Below, in pieces: positions 4,854 through 41,538 of a DNA stretch of 64,000 bases (position 1 is its first letter; each line of letters starts with the position of its first letter). The stretch comes from an uncultured Candidatus Saccharibacteria bacterium (GTDB lineage Bacteria; Patescibacteriota; Minisyncoccia; Phycocordibacterales; GCA-2401445). Location of the stretch: positions 28,321 to 92,320 of the forward strand of contig CAYTAR010000001.1 in the NCBI GenBank assembly GCA_964436015.1. Direction: 5' to 3'. The position numbers and the translations under genes are program-made. The notes under the pieces are model-generated. The model was not told the DNA's origin, made no database searches, and saw only the letters and a list, made by a program, of their open reading frames with translations.

Positions 4854-4928
4854 CTTGCCAGTGTAGTATTTATTCTCAATTTTTGCTATACTATGCGAAT
4901 ATTTGACACATTGTGTTGAAATTATTGT

Positions 4929-6998: not shown

Positions 6999-7028
6999 AA
7001 AAACCGACCACACGGTCGGTTTTTTTAT
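6996..7028. terminator. Bidirectional rho-independent terminator between convergent gyrB and surface-protein gene
   Basis: aaaaaaccgaccacacggtcggttttttt: GC stem accgacc/ggtcggt flanked by A- and T-runs. Confidence 0.7.
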
Positions 7029-8147
7029 TTAGTTTTGTGTAAAGAGGGGGACGACAAGTTTGTTGTTGTCTGGATTATCTCCCGAAACCTGTTTGCCAGG
7101 GTCAACATTTATAGTTACTGCTTTTTCACCCGCGGTGACTTGATCAAATGCAATAGTAAATTCAATTCTTTCCCCTGGATTGAGTGATTGTTGTGTATCA
7201 GAGGTATACATGTATGCAGGGTAGGTAGGAAGCTGTGCGCTAAAGTACCAGTTGTTTGCACGTGCAGTTCCTGTGTTTGTTACTTCAAAGCGAATCGCTA
7301 CTCGATCTACACGAGAGAAGCTCGTTGTTGCAGTGTACTCATTAGTAAGTCGGTCAAGTGTTCCAGTATCTAAAAGCTTTGGCTCAAGCTCGGGCTTTCC
7401 ACCAGGAACAGCAGTTGGTGTAGTGTTTGGAACAGGGATTCGTATTACTGTTTCAACAGGTGTTTGCTCAAGTGGCTGTGTTGGTGATTGAGTGCTCTGG
7501 CTTACAGGGAGAGCTATTACTTCTTCAGTAGCATCGGTTGAGGTACTAAAGAGAGAATCAGTATTGAGTGAATTTGAATCACTGCTAGTTGATGTACCGC
7601 TATTCGTTGTTGCAGGTAGAGATTCATTTGTAACAGTAATGGTGTTTGTGCCTCTCACCACAATGGTTGCGCCATCAAAGTAGCTTACAAACACAGATAC
7701 TTCAGCGTTCTGAATAGCTGGTGATGAAAGCGTAACTTGAATAGGCATACTAATATCCTTTATCCTGTAGTATGACCCACAACGTACTTGTTCTTCTGTC
7801 GGACTAAAGATTGCAGTAGGGTCAATTCTGTACGTAACATCAGTTACGCATCCAAATGCTATTGCATAGACTCCATCATCTGATGATGGGTTGTTGTGTA
7901 CGACACTTATTGTTGAACTTCCGCCGGTCTCAAGTAGGGAAGGGTTGACGTTAATCGTAATAGATTCTTCATTACCTGAGAAAAGATTTGTAATGAGAGC
8001 TATACTTCTTTCTGCAATTGAGGCAAGAGTAGGGGATGTTTTAGTTAGAATAATTCCCCAAAAACCTATAGCAAAAAACGCAATAACTACCACACTGGTG
8101 ATAAGTGCAATTTTCGCACGTTTTTCTGTTTTTTCTTTGTTTTCCAT
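7029..8147 (-). CDS. Membrane-anchored secreted protein with Ser/Thr-rich linker (cell-surface protein, unknown function)
   Basis: N-terminal TM (ALITSVVVIAFFAIGFWGIIL), long S/T-rich low-complexity region, beta-rich C-terminal domain; no homolog recognised. Confidence 0.55.
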   Translation of the reverse strand: MENKEKTEKRAKIALITSVVVIAFFAIGFWGIILTKTSPTLASIAERSIALITNLFSGNEESITINVNPSLLETGGSSTISVVHNNPSSDDGVYAIAFGCVTDVTYRIDPTAIFSPTEEQVRCGSYYRIKDISMPIQVTLSSPAIQNAEVSVFVSYFDGATIVVRGTNTITVTNESLPATTNSGTSTSSDSNSLNTDSLFSTSTDATEEVIALPVSQSTQSPTQPLEQTPVETVIRIPVPNTTPTAVPGGKPELEPKLLDTGTLDRLTNEYTATTSFSRVDRVAIRFEVTNTGTARANNWYFSAQLPTYPAYMYTSDTQQSLNPGERIEFTIAFDQVTAGEKAVTINVDPGKQVSGDNPDNNKLVVPLFTQN

Positions 8148-8199
8148 ATGTTTTTTAGTATACTATCATACTTTTATGCTTATGTCAATAGTCTGATGT

Positions 8200-8228
8200 T
8201 TGACAAAGTTAAAATAATAGTGTATGAT
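8200..8228 (+). promoter_or_regulatory. Sigma70-like promoter upstream of sortase (-35 TTGACA 8200-8205, 17-nt spacer, -10 TATGAT 8223-8228); SD AGGTGAGG at 8241-8248
   Basis: Consensus hexamers and spacing read directly; RBS 8 nt upstream of ATG 8257. Confidence 0.5.
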
Positions 8229-8256
8229 GTTTTATATGAAAGGTGAGGCAATAATA

Positions 8257-8904
8257 ATGTCAAAGGAGGCATTTTATATTTATTTTTTGATGATATCTTC
8301 TGTGAGTATCATTGCGCTTTTTATGATTGGCATACTTCCATTTAAGAACGTGGAGGCTGACAATGTGCCTTTAGAATTGACACCTATAAAGGCAGAAAAC
8401 AGTGTGATTACTACTGAACAAGTGATTATTCCAGACATTGAATCAGGTATGGTTGAGTATCCAGAGTATCCACGAGAGCTTTACATTCCTCAACTTGAGC
8501 GTAGAATCCAAATTAGTAATCCAATTGAGAGTGATTTGAGCGTGTTAGAGCAAGAACTGCTTACTGGCGCGGTACGTTATCCAACTTCAGCACGCGTGGG
8601 TGAGCCTGGAACTGTTTTTATATTTGGCCACAGTAGCTCTTTGCCAGTGGTAAGAAATCAGAACTTCAAAGCATTTAATGGTATACAAAATCTCCATACT
8701 GGTGATCTTGTACTACTGTATTCAGAAACTGCAGAATATACATACGCAGTTAGTTCCGTTCGAGAGGCTACCGTAGACGGTGGAACAGTACCGCTGATAA
8801 GTGATGGTTTTTATCTAGTGTTGTCTACTTGTAATAATTTAAAAAGTAAAGAAGACAGGTTTATCGTTACGGCAGAATTGGTAGCGGTACGTCAATTACC
8901 TTAA
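8257..8904 (+). CDS. Sortase (transpeptidase; ORF track start 8224, RBS-supported start 8257)
   Basis: N-terminal TM anchor; catalytic His in IFGHSSS, catalytic Cys in LVLSTC (TLxTC motif), conserved Arg in RFIVTAELV. Confidence 0.8.
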   Translation: MSKEAFYIYFLMISSVSIIALFMIGILPFKNVEADNVPLELTPIKAENSVITTEQVIIPDIESGMVEYPEYPRELYIPQLERRIQISNPIESDLSVLEQELLTGAVRYPTSARVGEPGTVFIFGHSSSLPVVRNQNFKAFNGIQNLHTGDLVLLYSETAEYTYAVSSVREATVDGGTVPLISDGFYLVLSTCNNLKSKEDRFIVTAELVAVRQLP

Positions 8905-8914
8905 TAACAAATAT

Positions 8915-11701
8915 ATGAAATATTTTTTCGCAATAGTTATAGTGTTCGCAGGACTTGTGTTGCCACAAGTGTCTTATTCAACAGGAGGACACGGCTGTGT
9001 TCTTGAAATCACCAAATCTGTGTCTAAGACAGAGGTAAAGCCTGGTGATTCAGTAGAGTTTACTCTTGATTTTAAGAATAGTGGGACTGGTAACTGTACG
9101 GGAGGAGGAGTTCGAGTACAAGACGTACTTGACTCAAATCTCACCTTTGTGAGCGCTACGAAATCTTCAAACGTGACACTTGGGTATTACAACGGAGTGC
9201 CGTTATACAATTCACAAAACAATACAGTTAGTTTTAATGCAAACACGCTGAGTCCTGGAGAGGTGGGTTGGGCAAAAATTGTTGCAACCGTGAATCAAAT
9301 TTCAGCTTGTGGCATAACTGAGATAAAGAATAAGGCACAGATTACTTCAAAAGAAATAGCGGGAAGCAGTGTAACTTCTTCAAATCCTTCTGTGTGGGTT
9401 ACGAGTAATGAGGTAGTTATGTCATACAATAAAGTATGTACTCCACCCCTTACCGCTATTTGCGAAGCTGACCCTGCATCAGTGCTCACTAATGAACCGG
9501 TTACCTGGTCTGCATTTGCAACTGGAGGAACTGGATCGTACACGTACGCGTGGAGTGGGGATCAAGGATTGAGTGGTGCTGGTGATACGGTAACCCATTC
9601 ATATGGTTTTGATGGAACAAAGCAAGCGCAAGTTATTGTAACTTCTGGGTCAGACCAATATACCGCTAACTGTAGTGTGAAGGTAACTGAACAACCCCTT
9701 TCGGAAGCGTGTCCGTTCGTACCAGCTCTCAATAGAACAATAATTTCTTTTGGTAATAAGAAAATTTTTGCGAATAGAACTCCCGCAGAGACTTATGTTG
9801 GACCAGTATCAGTAACTGTGCCGTCAGGCACCTACGTAGTTAGTTTGGCGTCATACGATGGCTACACGGGACGACGAACAGCGGTACAAACAAGCGAACG
9901 GTGGTTTCTTGAGCTTGCAAACTCAACACAAAAAGTAGAATCGGGCATTATCGCTGATGTTCCAGATCCAACCAATTCTGATTATGCAAAAATTGAGGAA
10001 ATGGTAAATCAAGCACTCTACATACCTTTCGACGTGACTCATGCCTACGCTCGTCACGCGGTTGTTTTTGGTGGAATATCAGGAACTGGAGCAAATAGCT
10101 TAAACCCGATATGTGCATCTCTTGATCTAGTTAATACAGAAACAGATATTTCACTTGTCTGCGAAGCTGACCCTGCATCAGTGCTCACTAATGAACCGGT
10201 TACCTGGTCTGCATTTGCAACTGGAGGAACTGGATCGTACACGTACGCGTGGAGTGGGGATCAAGGATTGAGTGGTACAAGCAGTTCACTTATGAAGTCG
10301 TATACAACGACGGGAGTAAAAAATGCTTCAGTTACAGTTACTTCAGGTACAAAAACTAAAACAGTAGAATGTAGTGTACAGGTCACACAAAGTACAACAA
10401 ATCCACCTTTAAATGCAGTCTGCGAAGCTGACCCTGCATCAGTGCTCACTAATGAACCGGTTACCTGGTCTGCATTTGCAACTGGAGGAACTGGATCGTA
10501 CACGTACGCGTGGAGTGGGGATGGAGGAGTAAACGCTACTACGAGTACCTTTACTAATACATACTCAACATCTGGTACTAAGAAAAATGAAGTAATTGTT
10601 GTTTCTGGTAGTGATCAGGTTACTCGCGAGTGTACCGTTGAGGTAACTTCAGGAGGAACGGGTGGTTCTCCGTTTGATGCAGTGTGTAAAGTAAGTGCGT
10701 CATCTGTGGGAATTGGATCTCTCGTTACCTATACCGCAGAGGCTGTAGGAGGAACAGGAAATTACACATACCTTTGGAGTGGAGATCAGGTTGATGGTAA
10801 TACGCAAGCGGGCGTTAATACTTCGTATACTTCAGTAGGAACTAAAAACGCGAGCGTTGCAGTAACTTCTGGTAGCGAGACCATTTCTTTGTCATGTAGT
10901 ACGTTGGTTACCGGTGGTGGAGGTGGATGTGTGGGTGGATGTGGTGGGGGTGGACCAACACCGCCTGTAGTAACTTTGCTTAAAAAGTTTTTCCCAGCAG
11001 AAGTAGTGCCACAAGATGAGTATCTTTCAATATACTTGAGTGCAGTTCCATACACCGGACTTGGTCCAACAGCTAAGACGATGATCGTTATCCTCTCTGC
11101 GTTAGTTTTGAGTGCTGGAATTGCATTTCTTCTTTCAAAGAAAATAGCAACACCAGGTGTTGCGCCACTTCGCACAAGAGATGCTCGTACAGAGAATCAT
11201 CCGCTTGCATCGTTTGGTATATTTGAACGGTCTGAAGTAAAGAATACTTCAAAACCTTACACGGAGTTTCTTCCAACTGAAGGCGAAATTCCTTCATACA
11301 TGCGACACGACGCTCACGAAGATACGACTAACGTAAATTATGAAAATGGTTTAAAAGCTACTACTCACACGGTGCATAGTGATGCGCGCGCACTGCTTAC
11401 CGCAATCGCACACAAAGATAGTGGTTCTGCCTTTGCGATTATTCGTGCAGAGCGTGCAAATGAGGTTAAGTTTGCAGAGTACATGACCGAAGTGGTATCT
11501 GCGCTCGATGCGGTATACCGAGAACGAATTGAAGGTAAGTATGCAAATGCAGACCATGAACTCAGTATGTTGTTCTCACGTTGGAGTAGTGAACAATTGG
11601 AGAGATTGATTACTCAGTTACTCCGTGCGGTAAATATGACCTATGCCGATGCGTACACCGCAACTCAGTTAGCTCTCGTTAGTGCACTCAATACTAATTA
11701 A
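8915..11701 (+). CDS. Large surface protein with signal peptide, four PKD-like repeat modules, Gly/Cys-rich stalk, internal sorting-signal-like segment (VPYTG + TM + KK) and 190-aa C-terminal domain
   Basis: Signal peptide MKYFFAIVIVFAGLVLPQVSYS; repeated CEADPASVLTNEPVTWSAFATGGTGSYTYAWSGD modules; GGGGGCVGGCGGGGPTPP; VPYTG-LGPTAKTM-IVILSALVLSAGIAFLL-SKK; adjacent to sortase. Confidence 0.75.
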   Translation: MKYFFAIVIVFAGLVLPQVSYSTGGHGCVLEITKSVSKTEVKPGDSVEFTLDFKNSGTGNCTGGGVRVQDVLDSNLTFVSATKSSNVTLGYYNGVPLYNSQNNTVSFNANTLSPGEVGWAKIVATVNQISACGITEIKNKAQITSKEIAGSSVTSSNPSVWVTSNEVVMSYNKVCTPPLTAICEADPASVLTNEPVTWSAFATGGTGSYTYAWSGDQGLSGAGDTVTHSYGFDGTKQAQVIVTSGSDQYTANCSVKVTEQPLSEACPFVPALNRTIISFGNKKIFANRTPAETYVGPVSVTVPSGTYVVSLASYDGYTGRRTAVQTSERWFLELANSTQKVESGIIADVPDPTNSDYAKIEEMVNQALYIPFDVTHAYARHAVVFGGISGTGANSLNPICASLDLVNTETDISLVCEADPASVLTNEPVTWSAFATGGTGSYTYAWSGDQGLSGTSSSLMKSYTTTGVKNASVTVTSGTKTKTVECSVQVTQSTTNPPLNAVCEADPASVLTNEPVTWSAFATGGTGSYTYAWSGDGGVNATTSTFTNTYSTSGTKKNEVIVVSGSDQVTRECTVEVTSGGTGGSPFDAVCKVSASSVGIGSLVTYTAEAVGGTGNYTYLWSGDQVDGNTQAGVNTSYTSVGTKNASVAVTSGSETISLSCSTLVTGGGGGCVGGCGGGGPTPPVVTLLKKFFPAEVVPQDEYLSIYLSAVPYTGLGPTAKTMIVILSALVLSAGIAFLLSKKIATPGVAPLRTRDARTENHPLASFGIFERSEVKNTSKPYTEFLPTEGEIPSYMRHDAHEDTTNVNYENGLKATTHTVHSDARALLTAIAHKDSGSAFAIIRAERANEVKFAEYMTEVVSALDAVYRERIEGKYANADHELSMLFSRWSSEQLERLITQLLRAVNMTYADAYTATQLALVSALNTN
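9461..9577 (+). repeat. Intragenic nucleotide-identical repeat copy 1 (117 nt) encoding PKD-like module start
   Basis: tgcgaagctgaccctgcatcagtgctcactaatgaaccggttacctggtctgcatttgcaactggaggaactggatcgtacacgtacgcgtggagtggggatcaaggattgagtggt identical to 10160-10276; antisense ORFs share identical peptide MYDPVPPVANADQVTGSLVSTDAGSASQ. Confidence 0.9.
10160..10276 (+). repeat. Intragenic repeat copy 2 (117 nt, identical to copy 1)
   Basis: Direct reading of sequence. Confidence 0.9.
10421..10522 (+). repeat. Intragenic repeat copy 3 (~101 nt identical, then diverges)
   Basis: Direct reading of sequence. Confidence 0.9.
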
Positions 11702-11712
11702 TTCATATAAAT

Positions 11713-11740
11713 AAAAAAATGCCCGATAGGGCATTTTTTT
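11713..11740. terminator. Bidirectional rho-independent terminator between convergent surface-protein gene and dnaE
   Basis: aaaaaaatgcccgatagggcattttttt: stem atgccc/gggcat with flanking A/T runs. Confidence 0.7.
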
Positions 11741-14700
11741 ATGCTTCCTTTGACACAAGTTGCTTTACTTTCTCAATAATTATACTTGGTGTTCCGTTGC
11801 GTTTGGAAAGCTTTCCTTTAACCGCTACGCATGTATCAAGTGCAATTATGTTACCGTATTCAACACACACATCTGGAAATACGACCGCTTCTATTGTTGC
11901 ACTGTAATCTGCAATAGAGATAAACATCATGTGCTTACCTTTCTTTGTAATTATCGGCTTTACTTCTGTGATAATGCCTGGAACTAAAACAGTGCTTCCT
12001 TCAAATCCTGATGTTGCTATGTGGGAGATGGTTGTGGTTTGTTTTGAAAAAATATCAGGAAACGCATCAAGCGGGTGACCGCTAATGTATAAACCAAGTA
12101 GTTCTTTTTCCCACGCAAGAAGTGTACTTGGAGGGAGTTTTTCTGCTTCAGGAAGCTTGATATCTTCAATAGATGTCTCAATAGTAGAGAAAAGCGAATC
12201 TTGATTAAGGGGCTTTCTAGTGGCTTCGCGATTATATGCGAGCAGGTTTTCCAAATGCATTAAGAGCGATGAGCGTTCACCAAAACTATCTAGTGCTCCC
12301 GCTTTGATTAATGATTCCAGTGATTTCTTGTTGAGGTTCTTATCAGTGATACGTGATAAGAAGTTTGAGAGAGAGGTAAAGGCACCGCGCTCTTCACGTT
12401 CAGTAATGATTGAATGGGCGATACCCTCACCAAAATTTTTAATCGTCGTGAGACCAAAACGAATGTGTTCAGTTTTGTCTGATTCAATAACTGAAAATCC
12501 TTCAAAACTGTAATTTACATCAGGTGGGAGAACTGGGATATTCATTCGCTTACACTCGCTAATTATTTCACTTATTTTTTCTACATCGCCTGATTCAGCG
12601 GTGAGAACAGCGGACATGTAAATTGCAGGGAAATTTGCTTTCATGTATGCCGTTTGATACGCCACCCGGCCATAGCTTGCCGCGTGCGCTTTGTTAAAAC
12701 CGTATGCGGCAAAAGGCTCAATTAACTTCCACAGCTTTTCACTTTTCTCAGTACTTAACCCACCAGCAAGGAATCCAGTTCTTAATTTTTCCTTCTGTGC
12801 TTCCATTTCTTCAGGTATTTTTTTACCCATAGCCTTACGTAGCTTGTCTGCTTCAAGCCATGAATAACCCGCAAGGTGAATCGCAATAAGCATGACGTCG
12901 TCCTGATAGGTAATTACACCGTATGACTGTTCAAGTATTGAGCGGAGTCTTTCATCTAGGTACGTTACTAGTTCAGGATTATGTTTTCGTTCAATGTATT
13001 GCGGAATCGACTCCATCGGTCCTGGTCGGTAGAGGGCAACCATTGCGTTGATGTCGTGTATGGTTGAAGGTTTAAGTTCTTTAAGAAATCGAGTCATGCC
13101 GGTACCGTTTAGCTGAAACAGACCTACGGTTTCTCCCCGAGCAAGCATTGCAAATGTTTTCTTGTCAGTGAGATCAATTTTTTCTATATCTATATCAATG
13201 TTTTTGTACTTTTTCACTCGAGCGACTGCATCCGCGAGAATAGAGAGGTTCCGCAAGCCAAGGAAGTCGAATTTTAAAAGCCCCGCATCTTCAACCCCGT
13301 GCATATCATACTGTGTAATGAGCTTCATTTCGCCCTTTGTATCAAACTGGAGTGGGGTAAAGTCAGTAAGTGTGGTTGGAGCAATTACTACACCAGCCGC
13401 ATGCACTGAAATGTGTCGTGCGCATCCTTCAATCTTTTTTGCCATATCAATAATCTCCTTCACCTCATCATCCGATTTGTAGAGTTTCTTTAGTTCCTCT
13501 TCAATTTCAAGGGCTCGGTCAAGCGTCATGGGAAATCCTTGTGAGCCCATAGGGATCAGTTTAGCTATTCTATCGCCAATGGTGTATTCAAAACCGAGCG
13601 CACGAGCAACGTCACGAACTGCACCACGTGCCATCATTGTTCCAAATGTTCCAATTTGAGCAACACAATCTGCACCATACTTAGCTCTGGCATACTCTAT
13701 CATTTCATCTCTCCTTATATCGGCATAATCCATATCAATATCTGGAGCAGAAGGTCGTTCGGGGTTAAGGAATCGCTCAAAGGGAAGTTTATACTCAAGT
13801 GGGTTTACGTTGGTAATACCAGAAAGGTAGGTAACTAGTGACCCTGCAACCGAACCTCTAATTGTAGTAAGAATATTTTTTGAATGAGCAAAATTAAGCA
13901 AGTCAGCCACTACAAGGAAGTAGGGGGCGTATCCCTTCTTTTTTATAATATCAAGCTCGTACTCAATGCGTGCGGTAACCTCAGGAGTATTCTCAAGGTT
14001 TCTTTTTTCAATTCCTTTGTACACCTTATCTCGAAGCGCATCGTCATGTGTCGGGAAGCCATACGTTTCTATTTGAGGAAATACCCATGTCCCAAGTTCA
14101 AGTTCAACAGTGCATGCGTCTGCAATAAGTGTTGTATTGGTTACTGCTTCGGGAATATATGAAAAAGCCGTACACATCTCATCAATGTTCTTAAATGAAA
14201 AATCTTCATTAGGATTGAGTGTGCGTTCACGTCCGCCACCAGACTGTACTGACATAAGTGTTTGCCGTGCAAGACGGTCTTCTTTTTCTAGGTAGTACAG
14301 TGCGTGTGTTGCAACCACAGGTATGTTGAGCTTTCGAGCAAGCTCAATAGTCGCCTTCATAAAAGTATCATGGTTTTCAAGTTCTGTATGACTAGAAAGT
14401 GCGACATAGAGGTTATCTTGGAATGTTTTTTTGTACCAAGAGAGTAATGCCTCTGCTTTGAGTAAGTCATTATCTCGTATCGCGTGTGCGACATCACTGG
14501 TTTCTGCGGGAACAATGGCAATTAGTCCGTCTTTGTACTCTTGTAACAACTCTTTGTCTGCACGGGGTTTGTAGTAGAAGCCTTCAAGGTGTGCTTTTGT
14601 AGTAATTTGAATAAGGTGCTTATAACCCACATTATTTTTTGCTAGCAGAACCACACGTGTGCGTCTGTTATCAATACCCGCTTGCTTATCAAAACGTGTT

Positions 14701-32455: not shown

Positions 32456-33703
32456 ATGAAAACTAAAAAAAAGAAGCTCGGAGCGAAAAAGAAACCAGTC
32501 ACTAAAAAACAGGTTAAAAAAATAGCAAAGAAGGTTATTAAGAAGACTAAGAAAACTGCGGTAAAGAAAGCAGAAAAGAAAAGTGCGCCAAAAAAGCAAC
32601 CGAAGGTAAAAGCACCAAAACTTTCAAAAAAAGAGCGTGAGCGAAATACACACATAAATCGTTTGGTTGCGAAAGGAAAAGAGCGTGGCTTTGTTACTTA
32701 TGATGAAATTCTAAAGGAGTTTCCAACTATTGAGGATGATATTGTCTTTTTGGAGGAGCTCTATGAGCATTTGAGTGTATCTGGTATTGATCTTCTTGAA
32801 GGTGGTAACTTGCTTGAGCTTGAACCTGAGCCTGCACATGGTAAGTACTTGTACACGCGTAACGAGAGCTCGTACGACTCAATTCAAATGTATTTGAAGG
32901 GTATTGGACAATATTCTCTTCTTACTGGTGGTCAAGAAAAAGAATTAGCAAAACGTATTGTTGCAGGAGATCCTGAAGCAAAGAACTTGCTTGCACGGGC
33001 AAACTTGCGTCTGGTTGTTTCTATCGCGAAGAAGTATGTGGGACGAAGCCCTGACCTAACCCTTCTGGACCTTATTCAAGAAGGAAACCTTGGTCTTTTT
33101 AAAGCAGTAGATAAGTTTGATTGGACAAAGGGATATAAGTTTTCAACATACGCGACATGGTGGATTAGACAAGCAATCACGAGAGCGCTCGCTGACCAAT
33201 CACGGACCATTCGTATCCCAGTACACATGGTAGAAACGATAGCGAAGTATAAGCAGGTAGTACGCCGACTTTCACAAGACTTGGGACGTGACCCTCTTCC
33301 TGATGAGATTGCGATTGAAATGGGTGTAGAAATAGAAAAAATTCATACGATTGAGAAAATTAGCCAAGACACGATTTCGCTTGAGGCGCCGGTCGGAGAT
33401 GATACTGATGATTCAAAATCAACACTGAGAGACTTTATTCCTGATGAGAAAATTCTTTCTCCTGATCAAGAGTCATCACGTAGAATTTTATCAGACCAGA
33501 TAAAGACAGTACTGTCTGACCTATCAGAAAAAGAGCGAAAAATCCTTGAGATGCGAAATGGTCTTCTTGATGGAATCACACACACGCTTGAAGAGGTGGG
33601 GAAGGAGTTCGGTGTTACTCGTGAGCGTATCAGACAAATTGAGGCAAAAGCACACGAAAAAATTCGTCAGCACGAAATGACGGAGCAACTCAAGAGTTAC
33701 TAG
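32456..33703 (+). CDS. rpoD: RNA polymerase sigma factor RpoD with histone-H1-like Lys-rich N-terminal region (ORF track start 32435)
   Basis: Region 2 ([40 protein letters not shown]), region 3/4 ([15 protein letters not shown]...[23 protein letters not shown]); N-terminal ~60 aa are K/A/P-rich. Confidence 0.9.
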
Positions 33704-34115
33704 GTCATCAATAGAGACCTATTGACGCACTATAGTGATGCGTGGTATTTTCCTTTTGGAAGAAATTCACTCTCGTATCAAAAACCACCCTCGCCTGAAG
33801 TGAGGTAATGGTGGCCTGAAGCCATTTTACAAAGTGGAAAAACACAACTGAATATGCTTGACCCTTACTCCATTGTCACTTTGGATGAAAGTCCATCCAT
33901 GCTTGACATGTACGCTCTTACTTCGTTCGCGAAAAGGAATTCACTCTTGAAGAGATCGAGGCACTCTCCGGTGGAGCTTTTGAATAAGGTAAGAAAATCG
34001 CTTCATGACATATATGTTGCGTGCGGTTTGCTTATTCTCTTCGTCTGTGTACTCGGCATTGCGCTTGTCGGTATGACACAAAATTCCTCCGTTACGGTTT
34101 TCGGACTCGTCGTGT

Positions 34116-34520
34116 GTGGGTTTACACATTGCAGGTGTTGTTGTATACGGCGGAGTTCTGTTTACAAGTAAAAACAGATACTCCAGATTAATGGAGCACT
34201 TATGCTCTCCTCCGCATGAAGTGAGTCGCGAATACGAAGTACTACTTATTGCGAGAAATCTTAACCTGGGAATTCTTTCTCTACTGTCAATGCGCGAAAG
34301 TGAGTTACGACGACTAGTTGATGCTTGCTTGTTCTCCATCACTCAGGAGATACTTCGGATTGAAAATGAAGGAAAGAGAGCTGGCTCATCTTATTCCGAA
34401 CTGCGAGAAGAGTTTGCTCAGAAGCATCGTTTATTCTTGAAATACGAACTTGCAGGAGAAGATTGGGGATATTATTTCAGAAAGGCGGAAATGCTTCTCA
34501 GTCGACCACTTGAATCTTAA
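34116..34520 (+). CDS. Hypothetical protein (region 33854-34520 has two overlapping frames; possible degraded gene)
   Basis: ORF ends 8 nt before a strong terminator; upstream ORF 33854-34171 in another frame; no family recognised. Confidence 0.3.
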   Translation: MGLHIAGVVVYGGVLFTSKNRYSRLMEHLCSPPHEVSREYEVLLIARNLNLGILSLLSMRESELRRLVDACLFSITQEILRIENEGKRAGSSYSELREEFAQKHRLFLKYELAGEDWGYYFRKAEMLLSRPLES

Positions 34521-34527
34521 GTGGTTA

Positions 34528-34560
34528 GCAAAACCCAAGCGCATGCGCTTGGGTTTTTTC
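34528..34560 (+). terminator. Rho-independent terminator
   Basis: aaacccaagcgcatgcgcttgggttttttc: 11-bp stem cccaagcgcat/atgcgcttggg plus T-run. Confidence 0.75.
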
Positions 34561-34779
34561 TATAGACAACATAGTAAAATGTATTAGTTTGTTTTATACT
34601 TTATGTAGTATGAATTCTACAGAAAACATCAAATCAACATGTGAAAAGACTTAGAGACTGTCCAAAACCTCACGTCGGAATGAAATGTTCAAATTTTTAA
34701 GTAAAAATAGATATTTTGAGGAATAATATATGGATATGGTGACGAGAAATAGCCATTTTGTAGCGAGAATTTGAGTATT

Positions 34780-35060
34780 TCAGCCGGCGAGCGTGTTTGG
34801 TTTTCCTTTACGGTGAAGTATTAGCTTTTGCGCGAACCCACTTTGCACGCGCGGAGCGCGTGGTGACTTGAAACTGCGTCTTACGCTCCGATTGCGTGGA
34901 AATGCTAACCAATGCGGCTCGGCCGCGCGCGCCTTGCTCGCGCGGGGCAAAACCCAAAAATTTCCTTTTCATTTTTTGTCGGCCCCCCACACACCCGCCG
35001 CGAAGCGGAAGATTTGAAAGGAAAGAAATTTTATGGTTTTACTGCCGCCGCTTCAATTTC
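34780..35060. other. GC-rich (~60% GC) non-coding segment with multiple GC stems in an otherwise AT-rich locus; unidentified (candidate structured RNA or foreign remnant)
   Basis: Runs such as ggctcggccgcgcgcgccttgctcgcgcgggg, ggccccccacacacccgccgcgaagcgg; ORFs here are Arg-rich artefacts. Confidence 0.4.
34812..34847 (-). repeat. Left copy of 36-bp inverted repeat (32/36 identical to 41445-41480 in opposite orientation)
   Basis: + strand ggtgaagtattagcttttgcgcgaacccactttgca = reverse complement of tgcaaagtgggttcgcgcaaaagctaatacttcacc; right copy tgcgaagtgggttcgcgcaaaggctaatacatcacc. Confidence 0.85.
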
Positions 35061-35068
35061 AACATACT

Positions 35069-35115
35069 TGTAATATATTACATTATTGTCATAGGACACA
35101 ATATTTGGCTATAAT
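35069..35115 (+). promoter_or_regulatory. Promoter of XRE-led operon (-35 TTGTCA 35086-35091, -10 TATAAT 35110-35115) overlapped by a 14-bp perfect palindrome TGTAATATATTACA (35069-35082), candidate XRE operator
   Basis: Direct reading. Confidence 0.5.
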
Positions 35116-35121
35116 ACATCT

Positions 35122-35334
35122 GTGAATATGAAAACCCCAACATCCAAACTTAGCAAGAACATCAAGCGAATACGCGAGCAAAAAGAAATGACACAAGGTG
35201 ATATTTGTCGTGCGGTCGGGCTTGATCGTGCTCAAATGAGCAACATTGAAGCGGGCAAAGGCAATCCCACGCTTGCCACTATTGAGAAAATCGCCCAAGC
35301 GTTGGGAGTATCAAGTGACGAGCTTTTGAAATAA
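35122..35334 (+). CDS. XRE-family helix-turn-helix transcriptional regulator (70 aa)
   Basis: Canonical HTH_3: LSKNIKRIREQKEMTQGDICRAVGLDRAQMSNIEAGKGNPTLATIEKIAQALGVSSDELL. Confidence 0.85.
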   Translation: MNMKTPTSKLSKNIKRIREQKEMTQGDICRAVGLDRAQMSNIEAGKGNPTLATIEKIAQALGVSSDELLK

Positions 35335-35338
35335 ATTT

Positions 35339-36409
35339 ATGAAGAAATCTAAAAAAATAAAAGTTGCGCTTGTTGGTATAGGAAATTGCGCAAGTTCTCT
35401 TGTTCAAGGTGTTTCATTTTATTCAAGATCAGAAAATACGACAGTCGGGTTAATGCATCCCAATTTTGCCGGATTTAAGGTGTCTGATATTGAATTTGTT
35501 ACCGCGTTTGATGTCGATAAAAGAAAAGTGGGAAAAGATCTCGCAGAAGCAATATTTCAAAAACCTAACTGTGCCAAGAAGTTTCAAGGGGTTGAACTAT
35601 TAAATATCAAGGTATTGAAGGGACACGTTTTAGATGGTGTAGCACCTCATATGCAAGAATACTTTATTGTCGATGACGAACAGAAATCAGTTGACATTGC
35701 GCAGGAATTACATAAAAGCGGCGCAGAAATGCTCATCTCTTATTTACCAGTGGGTAGTGCTGAAGCGTCGAGATTTTATGCTAATGAGGCAATAAAGGCT
35801 GGAGTCGGATTTATTAACGCTATTCCTGAATTTATTTGTTCTAAGCCAGAATGGATAGCTAAATTTAAAGAAAAAGGAATACCTTGTGCTGGTGATGATA
35901 TAAAATCACAATTTGGCGCAACTATTTTGCATAGGATTGTAACAAGATTTATTGAAGATCGTGGACATAAGATTGATAACACATATCAATTAAATATCGG
36001 CGGGAATACAGATTTTTTAAACATGAAAGATGAAAGTCGATTGGCTTCAAAAAGATTATCAAAAACGAATGCGGTGACTTCAATACTTGGAGAAAAAGAG
36101 TTCGGGGTTCGAATTGGTCCTAGTGATTACATACCACACCTTAATGACAATAAAATTTGCTATATAAATGTTAAAGGTAAACAATTTGGAGGACTACCTT
36201 TTGAATTAGATATTAAATTAAGTGTTGAAGATAGCCCGAATAGTGCTGGTGTTATGATAGATGTTATTAGAGCCATGAGAGTTGCCCTTGATTGTGGAAT
36301 CTCGGGAAACTTAGAAGCAATTAGTGCATACTATTTTAAGTCACCAGAAGTTCAATATAGAGACGATATTGCTAGGACAATGGTTGAAGACTTTATCAAT
36401 TTTAATTAA
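35339..36409 (+). CDS. ino1: myo-Inositol-1-phosphate synthase (short archaeal/bacterial type, 356 aa)
   Basis: NAD-binding KVALVGIGNCASSLVQG (yeast Ino1 LVGLGGNNGSTL), QLNIGGNTDF (SYNHLGNNDG), SKRLSKTNAV (SKEISKSNVV). Confidence 0.8.
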   Translation: MKKSKKIKVALVGIGNCASSLVQGVSFYSRSENTTVGLMHPNFAGFKVSDIEFVTAFDVDKRKVGKDLAEAIFQKPNCAKKFQGVELLNIKVLKGHVLDGVAPHMQEYFIVDDEQKSVDIAQELHKSGAEMLISYLPVGSAEASRFYANEAIKAGVGFINAIPEFICSKPEWIAKFKEKGIPCAGDDIKSQFGATILHRIVTRFIEDRGHKIDNTYQLNIGGNTDFLNMKDESRLASKRLSKTNAVTSILGEKEFGVRIGPSDYIPHLNDNKICYINVKGKQFGGLPFELDIKLSVEDSPNSAGVMIDVIRAMRVALDCGISGNLEAISAYYFKSPEVQYRDDIARTMVEDFINFN

Positions 36410-36418
36410 TAAGATTTT

Positions 36419-37639
36419 ATGATTTACATACATAAAAAAGAATTATTAGAGCCTGAGTATGAATTTGTCGAACGTAAAGGTCTTGGACACCCAGACACCT
36501 TGTCGGATGCTCTTGCTGAGTTTTTGTCAGTTAACTATTCAAACTATACTCTGAAGAATTTCGGCGCAGTCTTACATCATAATTTTGATAAAGTTGGATT
36601 ACTTGGAGGTGCTTCATTTGTAAAATTTGGTGAGGGATACTTAACAAAACCTATAAGAGTATTACTTAACGGTCGCGCTTCAACAAAATTCGGGGATAAA
36701 AATATTCCTGTTGAAGATTTGTTAAAATCTTGGGTTAGTGAATTTCTGCTAAACAAATTTAGAGATCTAATAAAAGAAAGTGATCTGGAAATTCATTATA
36801 ATTTAAGTACTCAAAGTAGCCCTGGTAAAACTGAAGACTTTAAGTCTACAAATACTCCTCGAAAGTTTTGGTTTGAACCAAGAAATTTTGACGATCTTCC
36901 GGAGACTAAAAAATTATTCTCCAATGATACTTCTTTGGGTGTAGGTTACGCTCCTCATTCTAAATTAGAGAGACTTGTTTTAGATATTGAAGAAACTTTA
37001 AACTCTAAGAGTTTTAAAAAGGATCATCCGTGGATAGGATCCGATATTAAAATAATGGGCACGAGGCATGGTCAGCAGTTTGGTATAACTTTATGCATAC
37101 CGCAAATAGCTAACTACGTACATTCGGTTGATGAATATAGACAAAATTTAGAGCAGACTAAACAAGTTATTTTCAGGATTTCTCAAAATGTTGGAATAAA
37201 TAATCTTGAGTTATCGTGTAATACTCGTGATAATTTAGAGACAAAAGAACTTTATCTTACGGCGATCGGTTCATCAATAGAAAGCGGTGATGAAGGTTTG
37301 GTTGGTAGAGGGAATAGAGTAAACGGGATAATTTCACCTACAAGACTTATGAGCATGGAAGGGGCTTGCGGTAAAAATCCTGTTTATCATATCGGCAAGA
37401 TTTACTATGTGGCTGCCAACGAGATTAGTAAAAAAATATTTGAAAAGTTTGGCGTCGCAAATGAAGTTTCTTTGATTAGCCAAAGTGGCCGAGATTTACT
37501 TGATCCATGGAAGACCTTCGTTACTTTATACAATTCAGATATAAGCGAAGAACTGGTTCTGATTTTTGTTGAAAACGAGTTAAAAAATATTCCAGAAATA
37601 ACCAGAGGCCTATTAGAGAATAAATTAAGGCTATTTTAA
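36419..37639 (+). CDS. mat: S-adenosylmethionine synthetase, archaeal type (PF01941-like), 406 aa
   Basis: Near-colinear with archaeal MAT: [79 protein letters not shown]; lacks bacterial MetK GHPDKIxDQISD and GGGAFSGKD motifs. Confidence 0.85.
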
Positions 37640-37650
37640 ATTTTAATGTT

Positions 37651-38775
37651 ATGGAAAAGATGCCTAATCAAGAAAAAGAAATAACAAGACTGGAATATTT
37701 GACTACCCATGTTGGTCTAGTCAGGCAACTTGATGAAAAATATTTGCTTGATGAGAAAGTATATTCAACAGATATTCAAAATGAAAGCTTATTAGAACAC
37801 ATACCGACAATTAAGCCGGATAGAGTGATTAGACAGGAAGGAGACACGACTATTTTTACTTCAGCTGGTATTCAGCACCTTGAAACTCTTGAACGTGACA
37901 AAATTAATTTAGAAAGGGAGAAGTTCAAAATTGCACAACCGGTTGTTCGCAGTCAGTTTATGGATAAGATCAAAGAAGGTTATTCGACATCTTTTATAGA
38001 TGAGGCCACCACTCAACTCGGAGTATCTGATGAAGATTTTTTTAGTATGTGTAAACAAATGGTAATCAATTCGTTAAATCATGATGCGGATATACAAAAA
38101 TACCATTTAACAATTGAGGCTCAGGATGATCGTTGGGGTCAAAAAAAGTTCACCAAATTAGTCGTTACTTTGTATTATGATGGGAACGAAGTGTCAGAAG
38201 GTGTATATATAGATAAATTTCCTAAAATTGATGGGCAGACTGTCTCTGTTGCCGAAACAACCCACAGCGCCGAAAGATTTAATTGGATTCACAGAGAAAA
38301 TCGAGACCGACCATATTTTATTGGCTTTGAAGAATTCTATAATACTGATAATAAAGATGATGTCGCAAGAATTATAGATCCCGTCAGAACTGCTACATTG
38401 ATGCTCATGCAAGGAGTTGTTCCATCACATAAGGATCCCGGATTCAGATTAAGACAGCTGATTAAAAGATTTGTGGAAAGAAATGCCGAGACTTCTTTTT
38501 CTGAAGATAGACTTTTAAATTTATCACATGATTTTTGGTTAGGAAATAACGTTGAAGGAATTGTTGATAAGGTCGAGATTCGTGAATTGTTAAAGAAAGA
38601 AATGACACGTGCTCAAAATGTACACATTGTCAGTTGGGTCGAGATAAATACTGGTAAGAAAATTAAGGTTGATGTGAATCTAAGCACAGATGAATTTCTT
38701 AAAAGGATCTATTCTTCATCACCAGAGGAGATTATTGGGGTAGTAAAAAGTATTAATTTAAAAAAATATGAGTAA
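37651..38775 (+). CDS. Alanyl-tRNA synthetase catalytic-domain paralog (truncated, 374 aa; motif 3 degenerate) - putative amino acid ligase
   Basis: Colinear matches to E. coli AlaRS N-terminal region: TTIFTSAGIQ (LLFTNAGMNQ), AQPVVRSQ (SQRCVRAG), RIIDPVRTATLMLMQGVVPSHKDPGFRLRQLIKRFVER ([39 protein letters not shown]); position of DTGMGLERI occupied by ETTHSAERF; no editing or C-Ala domains. Confidence 0.7.
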   Translation: MEKMPNQEKEITRLEYLTTHVGLVRQLDEKYLLDEKVYSTDIQNESLLEHIPTIKPDRVIRQEGDTTIFTSAGIQHLETLERDKINLEREKFKIAQPVVRSQFMDKIKEGYSTSFIDEATTQLGVSDEDFFSMCKQMVINSLNHDADIQKYHLTIEAQDDRWGQKKFTKLVVTLYYDGNEVSEGVYIDKFPKIDGQTVSVAETTHSAERFNWIHRENRDRPYFIGFEEFYNTDNKDDVARIIDPVRTATLMLMQGVVPSHKDPGFRLRQLIKRFVERNAETSFSEDRLLNLSHDFWLGNNVEGIVDKVEIRELLKKEMTRAQNVHIVSWVEINTGKKIKVDVNLSTDEFLKRIYSSSPEEIIGVVKSINLKKYE

Positions 38776-39445
38776 ACTTTTTTTAAGCGGTGGTGGCGAT
38801 ATAGAGACATCTTATCCGTTCGATAGTCTATTCTTTGATTCACTGCCACAGAGCGCGAATATTCTTTATATTCCCATTGCAATGGCAACCACCATGGCTA
38901 GAACAGAAGCATCTTTTGACTGGTTTTCAAAATTGATTTCAAGTCATTCAAGTAGCGACAAACACTTGGACTTTACTGTGTGGAATACTGGAGATTCTTT
39001 ACCTATCCTACATAATTACAATGCTGTATATGTTGGTGGTGGTAATACATATAGACTCTTGATGATGTTAGAAAAACCAGGAATGCTTGATGCTCTAAAA
39101 AAATATATCAGAAATGGTGGTATCTATTATGGTGGGAGCGCCGGTGCCGTGATTGTTGGTAAAAGCTTACGGACAGTGGATGAAGAAAATTTAGAAAATT
39201 ATTCAAAGCGTGATGGTATGAATCTTATTAATAATCTTTCTATATTCCCACATTTTTCAGATAGTGAGGAGCAAAAAAATATCATTAGAAATATCTGTGG
39301 CAATTATGCTTTAACGATAGCCGCGCTTCCTGAAGGCTCAGGTCTTGTTCTCGATGAGCGAGGCATAAGTGTTTACGGTAATATGTATTTATATGAACAA
39401 GAAAAGAAAACTCTTTTTTATACATCTGGGCAAATTATCAAGTAA
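38768..39445 (+). CDS. Peptidase S51 family protein (peptidase E / cyanophycinase-like serine hydrolase)
   Basis: VYVGGGNTYRLL, nucleophile motif YGGSAGAV, His in IFPHFSD; overlaps upstream gene by 8 nt. Confidence 0.7.
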   Translation: MSKLFLSGGGDIETSYPFDSLFFDSLPQSANILYIPIAMATTMARTEASFDWFSKLISSHSSSDKHLDFTVWNTGDSLPILHNYNAVYVGGGNTYRLLMMLEKPGMLDALKKYIRNGGIYYGGSAGAVIVGKSLRTVDEENLENYSKRDGMNLINNLSIFPHFSDSEEQKNIIRNICGNYALTIAALPEGSGLVLDERGISVYGNMYLYEQEKKTLFYTSGQIIK

Positions 39446-40595
39446 TTCTGGTCATACAGCGCGATTGCGGTATGAGTTAAAGGATATCAGCAAGACGGCG
39501 GATATTTCGATTCTGTCTTTGACAAATGAGCCTGACCAATCTTTCATCAATAAAAATCCAAATATACATTTTTATGTTTTGCCGATTAAGTTTAATGGCT
39601 GGAAAGTCGTTAATTTGGGTCATATTGTAGGGCAGATAAATGAAATAATCAGCTTTTGTAAGCCAGATATTGTTATTTTGTGTGTTGAGATCTGGGATTT
39701 AATTTTAGGGTTACATAAAAAAATATCTGACAAAGTAGTGTTTTGTGCTATATGCCACGCAATGCCATTTTTGGGTTCACCCTTGAATCCAACAAAATCC
39801 TTTGAATCAGATGTAAGGAAATTTGCTAATAAGCAAACGCTAAAATACAGAAAAAACTATATTACCAAACATTACAGAGAATTTCCTAAAATTATAAACT
39901 CTGGCTTACTAATTGCAAATAATGCAACCGTTGCTTTTTATTTCAAAAATTATTTCCCGAGGTCATCGTTTTGGAGACAAGTGCCTCATGTTACAGTTGA
40001 TCCGCTTAAAACGTCTAAAACCCTAGATATTGAGTATGATTTTTGTTATATGGCGAGAATGGAGAAAGGAAAAGGAGTAGAATATCTGCAAGATTTGTTT
40101 AGCAGAATTTCAATCAAGTTGGGTAGAAAAATCAGTGTGGCAATCATGGGCAGAGCTGATGATAAGTACTCCCAAGAAGAACTTAGAGGGCTACTTGAAA
40201 GTGAAGGTGAATCTTTTTCCGTTCGTTTTTTCGGTTGGGCTGATGATAAAACCAAAGCTGAAGTGTTGAGTAAAAGTGGTTGTTTTATTTATCCGTCAAC
40301 TTACGATAATTTTCCGACAGTGGTTAATGAAGCTATGGCTCATAGCTTACCTGTGGCAATGTGGGATACTCTTTTTTATAAAGTTAACTATTCTGACATA
40401 AAGTCTGTATCTGTGGCTACTCCTTTTAATGTTGAGCATCTGGCTTCAGTGGCCGTGAATCTGTTACAAGGAAAATCTACCTTACGTCGCCATTCTATAG
40501 AATACATAAAGGAAAATGGTGGCTCCAGATCAGTCGCAAAAGATGATCTTATACTATTTGATGAGATAATTAAGCGTTATGAAAGAAATAAATAA
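39393..40595 (+). CDS. Glycosyltransferase family 4 (GT-B; MshA/PIG-A-like retaining GT); ORF track start 39369
   Basis: C-terminal GT4 signature FIYPSTYDNFPTVVNEAMAHSLPVAMWD (EX7E-type motif). Confidence 0.8.
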   Translation: MNKKRKLFFIHLGKLSSNSGHTARLRYELKDISKTADISILSLTNEPDQSFINKNPNIHFYVLPIKFNGWKVVNLGHIVGQINEIISFCKPDIVILCVEIWDLILGLHKKISDKVVFCAICHAMPFLGSPLNPTKSFESDVRKFANKQTLKYRKNYITKHYREFPKIINSGLLIANNATVAFYFKNYFPRSSFWRQVPHVTVDPLKTSKTLDIEYDFCYMARMEKGKGVEYLQDLFSRISIKLGRKISVAIMGRADDKYSQEELRGLLESEGESFSVRFFGWADDKTKAEVLSKSGCFIYPSTYDNFPTVVNEAMAHSLPVAMWDTLFYKVNYSDIKSVSVATPFNVEHLASVAVNLLQGKSTLRRHSIEYIKENGGSRSVAKDDLILFDEIIKRYERNK

Positions 40596-41352
40596 TAACT
40601 TTGAAAGAATTTTCCCGAAAAAGAATGTTATTGTAATGCTTCATGCTCACGCTGATGATGAATCTTTCTTGTCGGCTGGTACTATAAATGAATTTATAGT
40701 ACGCAATTATAATGTCTTATTGATCTATTTGGCTACAGGTCTTATTGAAGAAGAAAAAAGAACAACAATTAGACGGAAAGAGCTCACCGAAGCTTTAAAG
40801 GTCTTGGGAGTAAAAAATGTAGAGTTTCTTGAGTATTGTGAACCTAAATATACCGTAAATGGTAAACCTCTTTATTTACAATCAATAAAAGAAATTTCAA
40901 ATAACATTAGAACAATTATTGAAAAAAGAGGTATAAAACATTATACGCTTTTTTCATATGATAAAAACGGTGGCTACGGCAATAAAGATCATCTCGTAGT
41001 ACATAAGGCAGGTAGGTTGTTATTCGTAAATTCGTCACCGGTTAGTCTACTATTTGAGATGACAATCCCAAGAGATGTATACTTGCGTTGGATCGGAAAA
41101 TATAAAAATAATGTTCCTGAATTATATTTACCGAAACTAAATTACTGGTCTACAGAATTTGGACTAAAAAACGAAGAGATTGATTATTTTTTTTTATTAA
41201 ACTCTCTACAAATAAAATTAAAGAAAAAAGCTCTTAGTAAACATGTCTCACAAATAAAGAATAAGGAATTCCCATTATCTCTCACTAATGCCGATTTTAT
41301 AGAATTATTCGGTAGAGAATATTTTGCTTATATTGATACATCGATTCTGTAA
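40579..41352 (+). CDS. PIG-L/LmbE-family N-acetylglucosaminyl deacetylase (MshB/BshB-like)
   Basis: VIVMLHAHADDESFLSAGTI (AHPDDE motif), GNKDHLVVHKAG (HxDH zinc ligands); overlaps upstream gene by 17 nt. Confidence 0.8.
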   Translation: MKEINNNFERIFPKKNVIVMLHAHADDESFLSAGTINEFIVRNYNVLLIYLATGLIEEEKRTTIRRKELTEALKVLGVKNVEFLEYCEPKYTVNGKPLYLQSIKEISNNIRTIIEKRGIKHYTLFSYDKNGGYGNKDHLVVHKAGRLLFVNSSPVSLLFEMTIPRDVYLRWIGKYKNNVPELYLPKLNYWSTEFGLKNEEIDYFFLLNSLQIKLKKKALSKHVSQIKNKEFPLSLTNADFIELFGREYFAYIDTSIL

Positions 41353-41444
41353 GGTGTCACTAACTTGACCGAAGCACAGAGCGAACATGAAGAAAGCACC
41401 GGAGAGGCTCTGTGAACGAATGTGAGCGGCGAGTGCAAGGTGCT

Positions 41445-41480
41445 TGCGAAGTGGGTTCGCGCAAAGGCTAATACATCACC
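41445..41480 (+). repeat. Right copy of 36-bp inverted repeat (pairs with 34812-34847), followed by weak hairpin/T-run 41487-41512
   Basis: tgcgaagtgggttcgcgcaaaggctaatacatcacc; lies in 5' leader of helicase gene. Confidence 0.85.
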
Positions 41481-41538
41481 AATCAACCCGTCAGAATGGC
41501 GGGTTTTTTTGCGCGAGGATACAAGGTATACTACTGCA

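Follow-up and report, generated by a model that had tools for sequence, protein, structure and literature searches.

Two inverted repeats enclose a 6.7-kb operon between rpoD and a helicase gene in an uncultured Candidatus Saccharibacteria bacterium. Are they the ends of a mobile element? The stretch of DNA that we analysed, hereafter the window, comprises 64,000 nucleotides of contig CAYTAR010000001.1. The original prediction for this locus, made from its letters, had proposed the boundaries of a non-autonomous mobile cassette or island with transposon-like ends, or else paired regulatory or structural sites. We conclude, with a probability of about 0.82, that the repeats, called arms below, are the terminal recombination-site arms of a cassette family that is associated with a large serine recombinase (LSR) and widespread in Patescibacteria. 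Patescibacteria (Candidate Phyla Radiation, CPR) have tiny genomes and are mostly uncultured, and to our knowledge the mobile elements described for them are very few. The proposal of a mobile cassette is supported by an empty site in relatives, by the same backbone with unrelated cargo elsewhere and by the lack of a recombinase in the window. The ends themselves are not of the transposon type. We read them as attachment-site arms of a serine recombinase which also encode the C-terminal tail of this enzyme.

The inverted repeat of the window

A repeat search returned two arms of 39 nt each, complementary at 35 of 39 positions (90%) and separated by 6591 nt. This pair was the top-ranked inverted repeat both locally and across the whole window. 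The predicted 36-bp repeat was therefore confirmed in a slightly longer form, with three mismatches and not four in its 36-nt version; a fourth one is reached only at position 37 of the longer arm. Inverted matches of 90% identity or more reached 43 nt in the actual sequence, and none of 20 shuffled versions exceeded 24 nt. A profile derived from diverse arm copies recognised only the two arms in the window; E was about 9e-13 for each of them and above 2 for the next match. Together with the 78 other loci carrying the same sequence, these values leave practically nothing to chance similarity.

The right copy had been described as carrying an internal expansion of about 11 nt. Past 39 nt, the two ends are in fact different sequence, and the right arm adjoins a truncated non-coding module, not a copy of the GC-rich block on the left. 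The claim that everything between the arms differs in base composition from its surroundings stood for the cargo (34.4% GC in 35339-41352, compared with 40-41% around rpoD and the helicase gene); both end blocks, being GC-rich (52-54%), depart from this pattern. No target-site duplication was found at the window arms, as had been noted before. The flanks, ...cctttac/GG and CC/aatcaac (here and below, a slash marks a junction), have nothing in common. The lack of a duplication is the expected outcome of serine-recombinase chemistry.

The arm is the edge of a conserved backbone with variable cargo

We found the 23-nt arm core GCNTTTGCGCGAACCCACTTNGC at 25 loci in species-representative genomes and at 53 metagenome loci. 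Their submitters labelled the genomes as Saccharibacteria, Paceibacteria/Paceibacterota/Parcubacteria, Gracilibacteria, Moranbacteria, Vogelbacteria, Nomurabacteria, Kaiserbacteria, Levybacteria and Peribacteria. Three arm-bearing contigs (L012, L022 and L025; L numbers denote loci of our collection) were assigned to Bdellovibrionales or Gammaproteobacteria bins, which may reflect mis-binning of CPR contigs or hint at transfer beyond the CPR. The core pattern had 0 matches in IMG/VR, and BLAST of the adjoining leader against PLSDB plasmids and INPHARED phages gave no match.

Conservation starts abruptly at (GC)GGTGATG in every locus. The DNA upstream is unrelated and is often a terminator hairpin or a tRNA gene. 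Inward, conservation extends over about 245 nt, which comprise the arm and a GC-rich leader ending in a long AT-rich hairpin, with 93-98% identity between lineages. The left block of the window (34812 to about 35052) is a divergent copy, its leader being 77% identical. Its nearest relative is L050, with 86.6% identity over 34807-35341, and this similarity stops exactly at the end of a gene for an XRE-family regulator. The window holds only two arm copies in 64 kb, and elsewhere the motif is always the edge of the same backbone of more than 250 nt. A dispersed repeat of the repetitive extragenic palindrome or bacterial interspersed mosaic element type was therefore dismissed. The original prediction had named two findings that would speak against it, a private motif with vertical conservation and a free-standing element of the latter kind. 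What we found was a motif at 78 diverse loci, always at the backbone edge.

The arm, leader, MODA (a conserved non-coding module of about 330 nt ending in a strong hairpin), XRE gene and recombinase gene were mapped on all loci. A recurring plan emerged (arm > leader > XRE > cargo ... < MODA < leader < arm), with a conserved leader of about 205 nt. XRE homologues occupy the equivalent position in at least 20 loci, and the L050 protein is 96% identical to that of the window. The cargo is unlike between loci: conservation ends right after XRE and resumes right before MODA, and the cargo is always co-directional behind XRE. Seven inward-facing arm pairs are listed in Table 1. Further cassettes carry C5 or N6 methylases with a LexA-like protein, hydrolases, oxidoreductases together with a short-chain dehydrogenase/reductase, a kinase of the aminoglycoside phosphotransferase type, or a nucleotidyltransferase. 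Cassettes may also abut one another, as in L008 (four arms), L050 (two arms in back-to-back orientation with 45 nt between them) and L063 (two in tandem). No homologues of the window cargo proteins were found in the other 80 loci.

Several details of the non-coding parts were recorded in passing. The C-rich tip of the leader hairpin, about 70 nt long (around 34975-35010 in the window), is reversed in at least five loci (L043, L045, L051, L052 and L063) as a mini-inversion flanked by the hairpin arms of about 25 nt. MODA holds a degenerate arm-like segment (for example at 6040-6080 of L017), which reads GGTGGTAGCTCTAACATCCGCGAACCACAC where the arm has GGTGATGTATTAGCCTTTGCGCGAACCCAC. An optional MODA stem of about 80 nt is present in some copies and cleanly absent from L008, L032, L037, L051, L063 and L066, a pattern typical of structured RNAs. 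Rfam searches at gathering and permissive thresholds, covering both window ends and the full leader-MODA region of L017, returned nothing credible. RNAalifold on 15 leaders gave a covariation term of about 0, with a double change in 1 of 62 pairs, the sequences being too alike; in 17 MODA copies gaps spoiled the prediction, and some double changes fell in only two small hairpins. We make no claim of an RNA.

The arm encodes the tail of a large serine recombinase

The gene that recurs beside the arm encodes a protein of 510-580 amino acids with Resolvase, Recombinase and Zn_ribbon_recom domains, that is, an LSR. At least 15 loci have it beside an arm, as a rule immediately beyond the XRE-side arm and with transcription directed away from that arm; the cassette relatives that it accompanies include L008, L030, L037, L056, L064, L066, L067 and L069. 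The roughly 160 nt between its start codon and the arm are an inverted duplicate of the last 50 or so codons of the gene itself. In L037, both copies of this 3' end are identical over the comparable stretch of about 87 nt up to the core.

Two kinds of junction follow this 3' end. In L064 and L066 the LSR reading frame is continuous with the arm, an attP-like arrangement; it runs through the arm in L064 (...SEVSFC/GDVLAFARTHFARAERVVALN, then a stop) and ends 12 nt inside it in L066. L037, L056, L067 and L070 show the other kind: at this codon position, the recombinase gene passes into the 3' end of an intact tRNA-Ser or tRNA-Arg gene, read in antisense. The two junction types, TGCGG/AGGGGGTGAGATTCGAAC and TGCGG/TGATGTATTAG, part at one point (TGCGG/TGATG for LSR and arm, TGCGG/AGGGGG for LSR and tRNA). 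The distinct outside flanks before GGTGA have G at -2 in 51 of 57 cases and C at -1 in 52 of 57, and are T-rich before that. Since the junction types diverge at a single point and the flanks share this GC, strand exchange can be placed within GCGG at the outer edge of the arm, which is likely the recombination core. Dyad symmetry of the attachment site around this core is weak (best 13/30). Judged from the junction sequences, the behaviour is that of a serine integrase whose attachment site has the end of its own gene as one arm and the inverted repeat as the other.

The recombinase family is large, with more than 5,500 clusters (90% identity) at E ≤ 1e-40. Among the 120 closest clusters listed, every named one belongs to CPR, save one labelled Deltaproteobacteria and two labelled only 'bacterium'. 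At least 47 of these 120 have tails read from the antisense strand of tRNA genes (..GIRTH.., ..GIRTLE..), ten end in [GAD][DE][IV][LVI]x FART[HFY]F and two more in near-variants. When the protein database was queried with a 90-residue C-terminal segment, the only matches were 24 short fragments with hypothetical annotations. The FART[HFY]F motif is encoded by nucleotide-divergent versions of the arm, and the arm copies vary as GAT/GAA/GAG, GTA/ATA, TTA/TTG/CTT, GCG/GCT, CAC/CAT and TTC/TTT. This variation is of the same kind as that between the versions which encode the motif, and we conclude that the arm has evolved as coding sequence for the recombinase tail. Read in this frame, both window arms are orphan copies of that tail. 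On the left, the frame at 34812-34871 gives GEVLAFARTHFARAERVVT and then a stop, and the arm differs from the common form at three positions, two of them synonymous (GCC>GCT, TTC>TTT) and one changing Asp to Glu.

A separate observation concerns L056, where a tRNA cluster (Ile, Phe, Ser, Arg; 4666-12230) holds two recombinase elements side by side, one fused to tRNA-Ser and the other to tRNA-Arg.

The window copy and the empty site in relatives

The original prediction had suggested looking for genomes with rpoD directly beside the helicase gene. The nearest relative available, L026 (JBBDJV010000008.1, Ca. Paceibacterota; helicase 54% identical), has the order rpoC-dnaG-rpoD-helicase-dsbA, with only 92 nt between rpoD and the helicase gene. 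L081 (helicase 47% identical) shows the same order and a 33-nt spacer. Both are distant relatives. L082, another Paceibacterium (helicase 46% identical), keeps the order too and has about 1 kb of unrelated small open reading frames (ORFs) in the spacer. The arrangement dnaG-rpoD-helicase-dsbA is therefore kept in all three. In the window, which has dnaG and rpoD on the left and a UvrD/PD-(D/E)XK helicase gene and dsbA on the right, the spacer measures 7.8 kb (33704-41538) and consists of the 6.7-kb cassette and 1.1 kb on its left.

The features of the window copy are given in Table 1. On the left, a long hairpin in the leader, AT-rich but C-rich at its tip, spans about 34949-35041. Directly upstream of the promoter-like site lies a perfect palindrome, TGTAATATATTACA (about 35068-35081), which is the likely XRE operator. 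The six cargo genes encode an inositol-3-phosphate synthase (mycothiol_INO1 model, 418 bits, which is under the model cut-off), an archaeal-type S-adenosylmethionine synthetase, an AlaX-like protein, an S51 peptidase, a GT1/GT4 glycosyltransferase and a PIG-L (MshB-like) deacetylase with best matches to MshB/Mca/BshB. These matches suggest a pathway of the glucosaminyl-inositol (mycothiol-like) type, an unusual finding in a Patescibacterium if correct.

At the right end, the arm directly adjoins the central part of MODA, with neither the leader nor the two ends of this module present. The junction falls in a repeat-like stretch, CACTTCGCAA.C, that is common to the arm and to the arm-like segment inside MODA (seen in the MODA of L019). 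L007 has a comparable but independent deletion. From the right arm to the start codon of the helicase gene (41539) there are 58 nt, which hold only the terminator-like hairpin.

Table 1. Features of the window copy (positions counted from the first letter of the window) and inward-facing arm pairs of related loci (positions of the two arms within each locus)
Feature	Position	Strand	Remarks
Extra left-hand stretch, rpoD stop to left arm	33704..34811		1.1 kb; absent from L026 and L081
Left (XRE-side) arm of the terminal inverted repeat	34812..34850	+	Outer edge of the conserved backbone
GC-rich leader	34851..35052	+	Copies 77-98% identical adjoin the arm in other loci
Promoter-like site, TTGTCA-18-TATAAT	35086..35115	+	Consensus match only; just upstream of the XRE gene
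XRE-family helix-turn-helix gene	35122..35334	+	Pfam HTH_3, 2.8e-15; last backbone part and first gene of the cassette operon
Cargo, six co-directional genes	35339..41352	+	Domain and family matches
MODA remnant, truncated	41353..41441	-	41358-41453 81% identical to MODA of L027/L033
Right (MODA-side) arm of the inverted repeat	41442..41480	-	97% identical to the common form over 39 nt; 100% over the central 36 nt
Terminator-like hairpin and T-run	41485..41511	+	Directly outside the right arm
Inward arm pair, L007	3814 / 5993		Cargo: PIF1-like helicase
Inward arm pair, L008	3523 / 5580		Cargo: two small membrane proteins
Inward arm pair, L037	10089 / 13117		Cargo: GTP cyclohydrolase II-methyltransferase fusion
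Inward arm pair, L056	6793 / 9821		Likened to L037 by recombinase C-terminus and flanking sequence; cargo itself not scanned
Inward arm pair, L067	124 / 3010		Cargo: C39-like peptidase, kinase, methyltransferase
Inward arm pair, L069	1069 / 4269		Cargo: N6 DNA methylase
Inward arm pair, CAZNKH010000017 (L017 and L005)	L017 5700 / L005 2566		Cargo: DsbD-HMA protein

The extra stretch between rpoD and the left arm contains two overlapping ORFs (105 and 134 amino acids; 33854-34520) that resemble one frameshifted membrane-protein gene; no family match was found for it. A perfect palindromic terminator of 14+14 nt follows at 34530-34557. The stretch showed no similarity to any recombinase or to any other locus, including the spacer ORFs of L082, which encode small membrane proteins (5018-5914). 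The rpoD-helicase spacer may repeatedly take up accessory DNA.

A model for the integration of the cassette

The junctions suggest how such an element would be integrated. The recombinase would exchange strands at the outer edge of the arm, GC/GGTGA. In the unintegrated form, the LSR gene would read across the crossover, with the arm providing its last 20 or so codons. Once the element is integrated, this codon position would border on host DNA, as a rule a tRNA gene at its 3' end. The recombinase-bearing integrated form would then have the order host / arm > leader > MODA ... XRE < leader < arm / duplicate 3' end / recombinase > / tRNA. It is matched exactly by L067 and in mirror image by L037. 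In this integrated form, the MODA-side arm is the true junction between element and host, which fits the right arm of the window, abutting host DNA.

The XRE-side arm of the window would be expected to adjoin the duplicate 3' end and the recombinase gene, both of which are absent. XRE-side junctions of this recombinase-less kind also occur in L007, L033/L027, L050 and L063. An LSR would have placed the cassette in the normally tiny rpoD-helicase spacer by one of two routes. Recombinase and cassette may have integrated together, with the recombinase later deleted or replaced; alternatively, a second crossover at the XRE-side site, which is a complete attachment site in full elements, may have delivered the cassette alone. 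Three features, namely the missing recombinase, the truncated right end and the absence of GC in front of each arm, make it most likely that the window copy has been stranded as a relic whose genes are expressed from its own predicted promoter near XRE. It would be immobile unless a recombinase acted in trans.

Several points weigh against the assignment of the window copy to an LSR-associated family. Integration by an LSR at a single site gives one arm-type and one recombinase-end junction, not two inverted arm-type junctions, so a second event must be assumed. Both window arms deviate from the near-universal GC before GGTGA, having AC and TT instead. As the original prediction had stated, no transposase or integrase lies between the arms; moreover, tblastn with seven family members (E up to 50) detected no LSR anywhere in the window. 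No recombinase remnants were found in 33500-35000 or in the whole window. For remnants of the LSR 3' end outside the arms, nhmmer gave nothing, and one marginal Smith-Waterman match (p about 0.003 among some 40 comparisons) was treated as absent. The link of the window copy to the LSR comes wholly from its relatives. No circular or excised form was found, overlapping ends being absent in 13 short contigs. The exact core pattern used in the scans itself fixes part of the apparent conservation. As for the empty site, the extra 1.1 kb on the left is missing from L026 and L081 just as the cassette is, and with only 54% helicase identity to the nearest relative, the insertion point cannot be placed to the nucleotide.

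Alternative explanations

The most serious rival is an invertible DNA segment, in which the arms would be crossover sites of an invertase that flips the whole cassette, as in Gin/Hin switches, and not insertion boundaries. In full copies, inverted repeats of about 250-400 nt (with leader and recombinase 3' end) do flank a segment with a serine recombinase just outside. The divergent recombinase is faced by the XRE side in L037, L067 and L069 and by the MODA side in L031, and in L066 the recombinase 3' end runs into the MODA side, as inversion would give; the leader-hairpin tip, too, is found in both orientations. However, the two orientations were seen in different genomes and not in one population. 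Flipping would leave unexplained why the whole 7.8 kb is absent from relatives and why the same backbone stands at unrelated sites with unrelated cargo, and no recombinase that could perform it is present in the window. It would also change little, because the operon has its own internal promoter-like site. We consider this explanation unlikely for the window locus, and inversion is probably an additional activity of the family.

Ends of a non-autonomous DDE-type transposon, similar to a miniature inverted-repeat transposable element or a composite element with its transposase elsewhere, would agree with inverted ends of about 39 nt that begin with GGTGA and look superficially like those of insertion sequences, and with an interior that encodes no such enzyme. 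However, the target-site duplication is missing, the arm belongs to a serine recombinase reading frame and the junctions at tRNA 3' ends are of the site-specific type. Cassette interiors hold XRE and metabolic or defence-type cargo, and the recurrent neighbours are the serine recombinase and host genes; no DDE transposase was seen among them, in loci that were not systematically scanned for such enzymes. We regard this origin as very improbable. The same low weight falls on the view that the arms are paired regulatory or structural sites of the operon (XRE operators, or partners in 5'/3' RNA pairing) with no role in mobility. They bracket one operon, and each has a small internal hairpin, GCGAA-N5-TTCGC; yet the same arms bracket operons of unrelated content and occur singly beside recombinase and tRNA genes, under protein-coding constraint, and the likely XRE operator is the different palindrome upstream of the promoter-like site.

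Other candidates were dropped. A group II intron, a diversity-generating retroelement, an IS110 bridge RNA and an IS605 omega-RNA were considered for the GC-rich block and rejected because no matching enzyme gene or Rfam model was found and because the serine recombinase association explains the ends. An integron cassette would call for a tyrosine recombinase, which neither the window region nor the recurrent neighbour genes provided, and the ends are not attC-like.

Significance

The non-coding backbone is nearly identical in Saccharibacteria, Paceibacteria and Peribacteria, and it carries cargo that ranges from DNA methylases to metabolic operons. If active, the family would explain how accessory pathways move among CPR, for example the set of inositol-phosphate synthase, glycosyltransferase and PIG-L deacetylase seen here. 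The recombinase, its site of about 40 nt and its tRNA targets would then be ready genetic parts for organisms without tools. The read-through of the LSR across its own crossover offers an idea of how the direction of the reaction may be controlled. For this window, the assignment would mean that the 6.7-kb operon is horizontally acquired cargo and not part of the core genome.

A bolder extension, which we put forward only tentatively and think more doubtful than not, is that the family could be a natural cassette-exchange platform for Patescibacteria. In this view, the LSR gene would be located beyond a pair of inverted and complete attachment sites, both consisting of arm and recombinase 3' end, and a double crossover would bring only XRE, cargo and MODA into a host chromosome. 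The window, L007, L033 and L050 resemble recombinase-less cassettes with host DNA at both arms. Each crossover would swap the C-terminal tail of the LSR (..FARTHF.. for tRNA-encoded residues), and this swap could possibly set the direction of the reaction. Seen as an exchange platform, the family would be a currently active vehicle for gene sharing across lineages, since its backbone is 93-98% identical between CPR lineages of phylum level.

Other observations in the window

A tRNA-Thr(tgt) gene at 1840-1913 is followed by an exact tandem duplication of 96 nt (1865-1960 and 1961-2056), which copies the 3' two-thirds of the tRNA together with 47 nt downstream. It could be a scar left at the attachment site of another integrative element, or else an artefact of the assembly. 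A 193-nt repeat in three copies (79-80% identical) lies at 9458-10610, inside an ORF of 928 amino acids (8915-11701), and presumably encodes repeated protein domains.

Comparison with known systems

The traits of known systems are given here from general knowledge. Judging by domain content and chemistry, the family is an LSR-mobilised integrative element, and the staphylococcal cassette chromosome (SCC; SCCmec, pseudo-SCC) with its Ccr LSRs would be its closest functional analogue. SCC likewise combines variable cargo with site-specific LSR insertion and short conserved end repeats that hold the crossover. Tandem arrays occur there as they do in L008, L050 and L063, and recombinase-less cassettes with kept end repeats are also common. 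The best NCBIfam matches of our LSR are CcrB, XisF, CcrA and CcrC, all far below cut-off (79.9 bits against 900). However, SCC is inserted only at the 3' end of rlmH, has ccr genes within the element and is defined by direct repeats. The family described here has its recombinase outside a pair of long inverted repeats and a crossover within the reading frame of this enzyme, and it is inserted, among other places, at tRNA 3' ends and at T-rich sites that follow terminators.

Prophages and elements with serine integrases (SPbeta SprA, phiC31, A118, TP901-1) share the architecture of Resolvase, Recombinase and zinc ribbon, and the closest solved structure to our LSR is SPbeta SprA/YokA (9dxh, E 5e-11). 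They also have short attachment sites, no target duplication and a recombinase gene at the element edge next to the site. In contrast to them, the cassettes have no phage genes and no match in IMG/VR, INPHARED or PLSDB, are only 2-7 kb long and bracket their cargo with a second, inverted copy of arm and leader. Tn4451 and Tn5397 (TnpX/TndX) are likewise small cargo elements, moved by an LSR into loosely defined targets with a short core common to their ends, but they carry the enzyme inside and form a circle joined at a GA core; we know of no inverted leader pair or recombinase read-through described for them.

Gin/Hin/Cin segments also have flanking inverted repeats, a serine recombinase outside and a crossover in coding sequence whose C-terminal part comes from within the segment. 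They differ in using small serine invertases with an enhancer at one locus, and they are not inserted at unrelated sites. Integron cassettes resemble the family in that a recombinase gene outside diverges from a promoter-proximal site, followed by exchangeable cargo, whereas they depend on the tyrosine recombinase IntI and folded attC sites. No published description of such an element in Patescibacteria was found in the one open-access library searched, which is not proof of novelty. Compared with known LSR systems, four features would set the family apart: a recombinase outside an inverted pair of site and leader, a reading frame across its own crossover, a backbone of XRE and about 330 nt of non-coding DNA, and the near identity of this backbone across CPR phyla.

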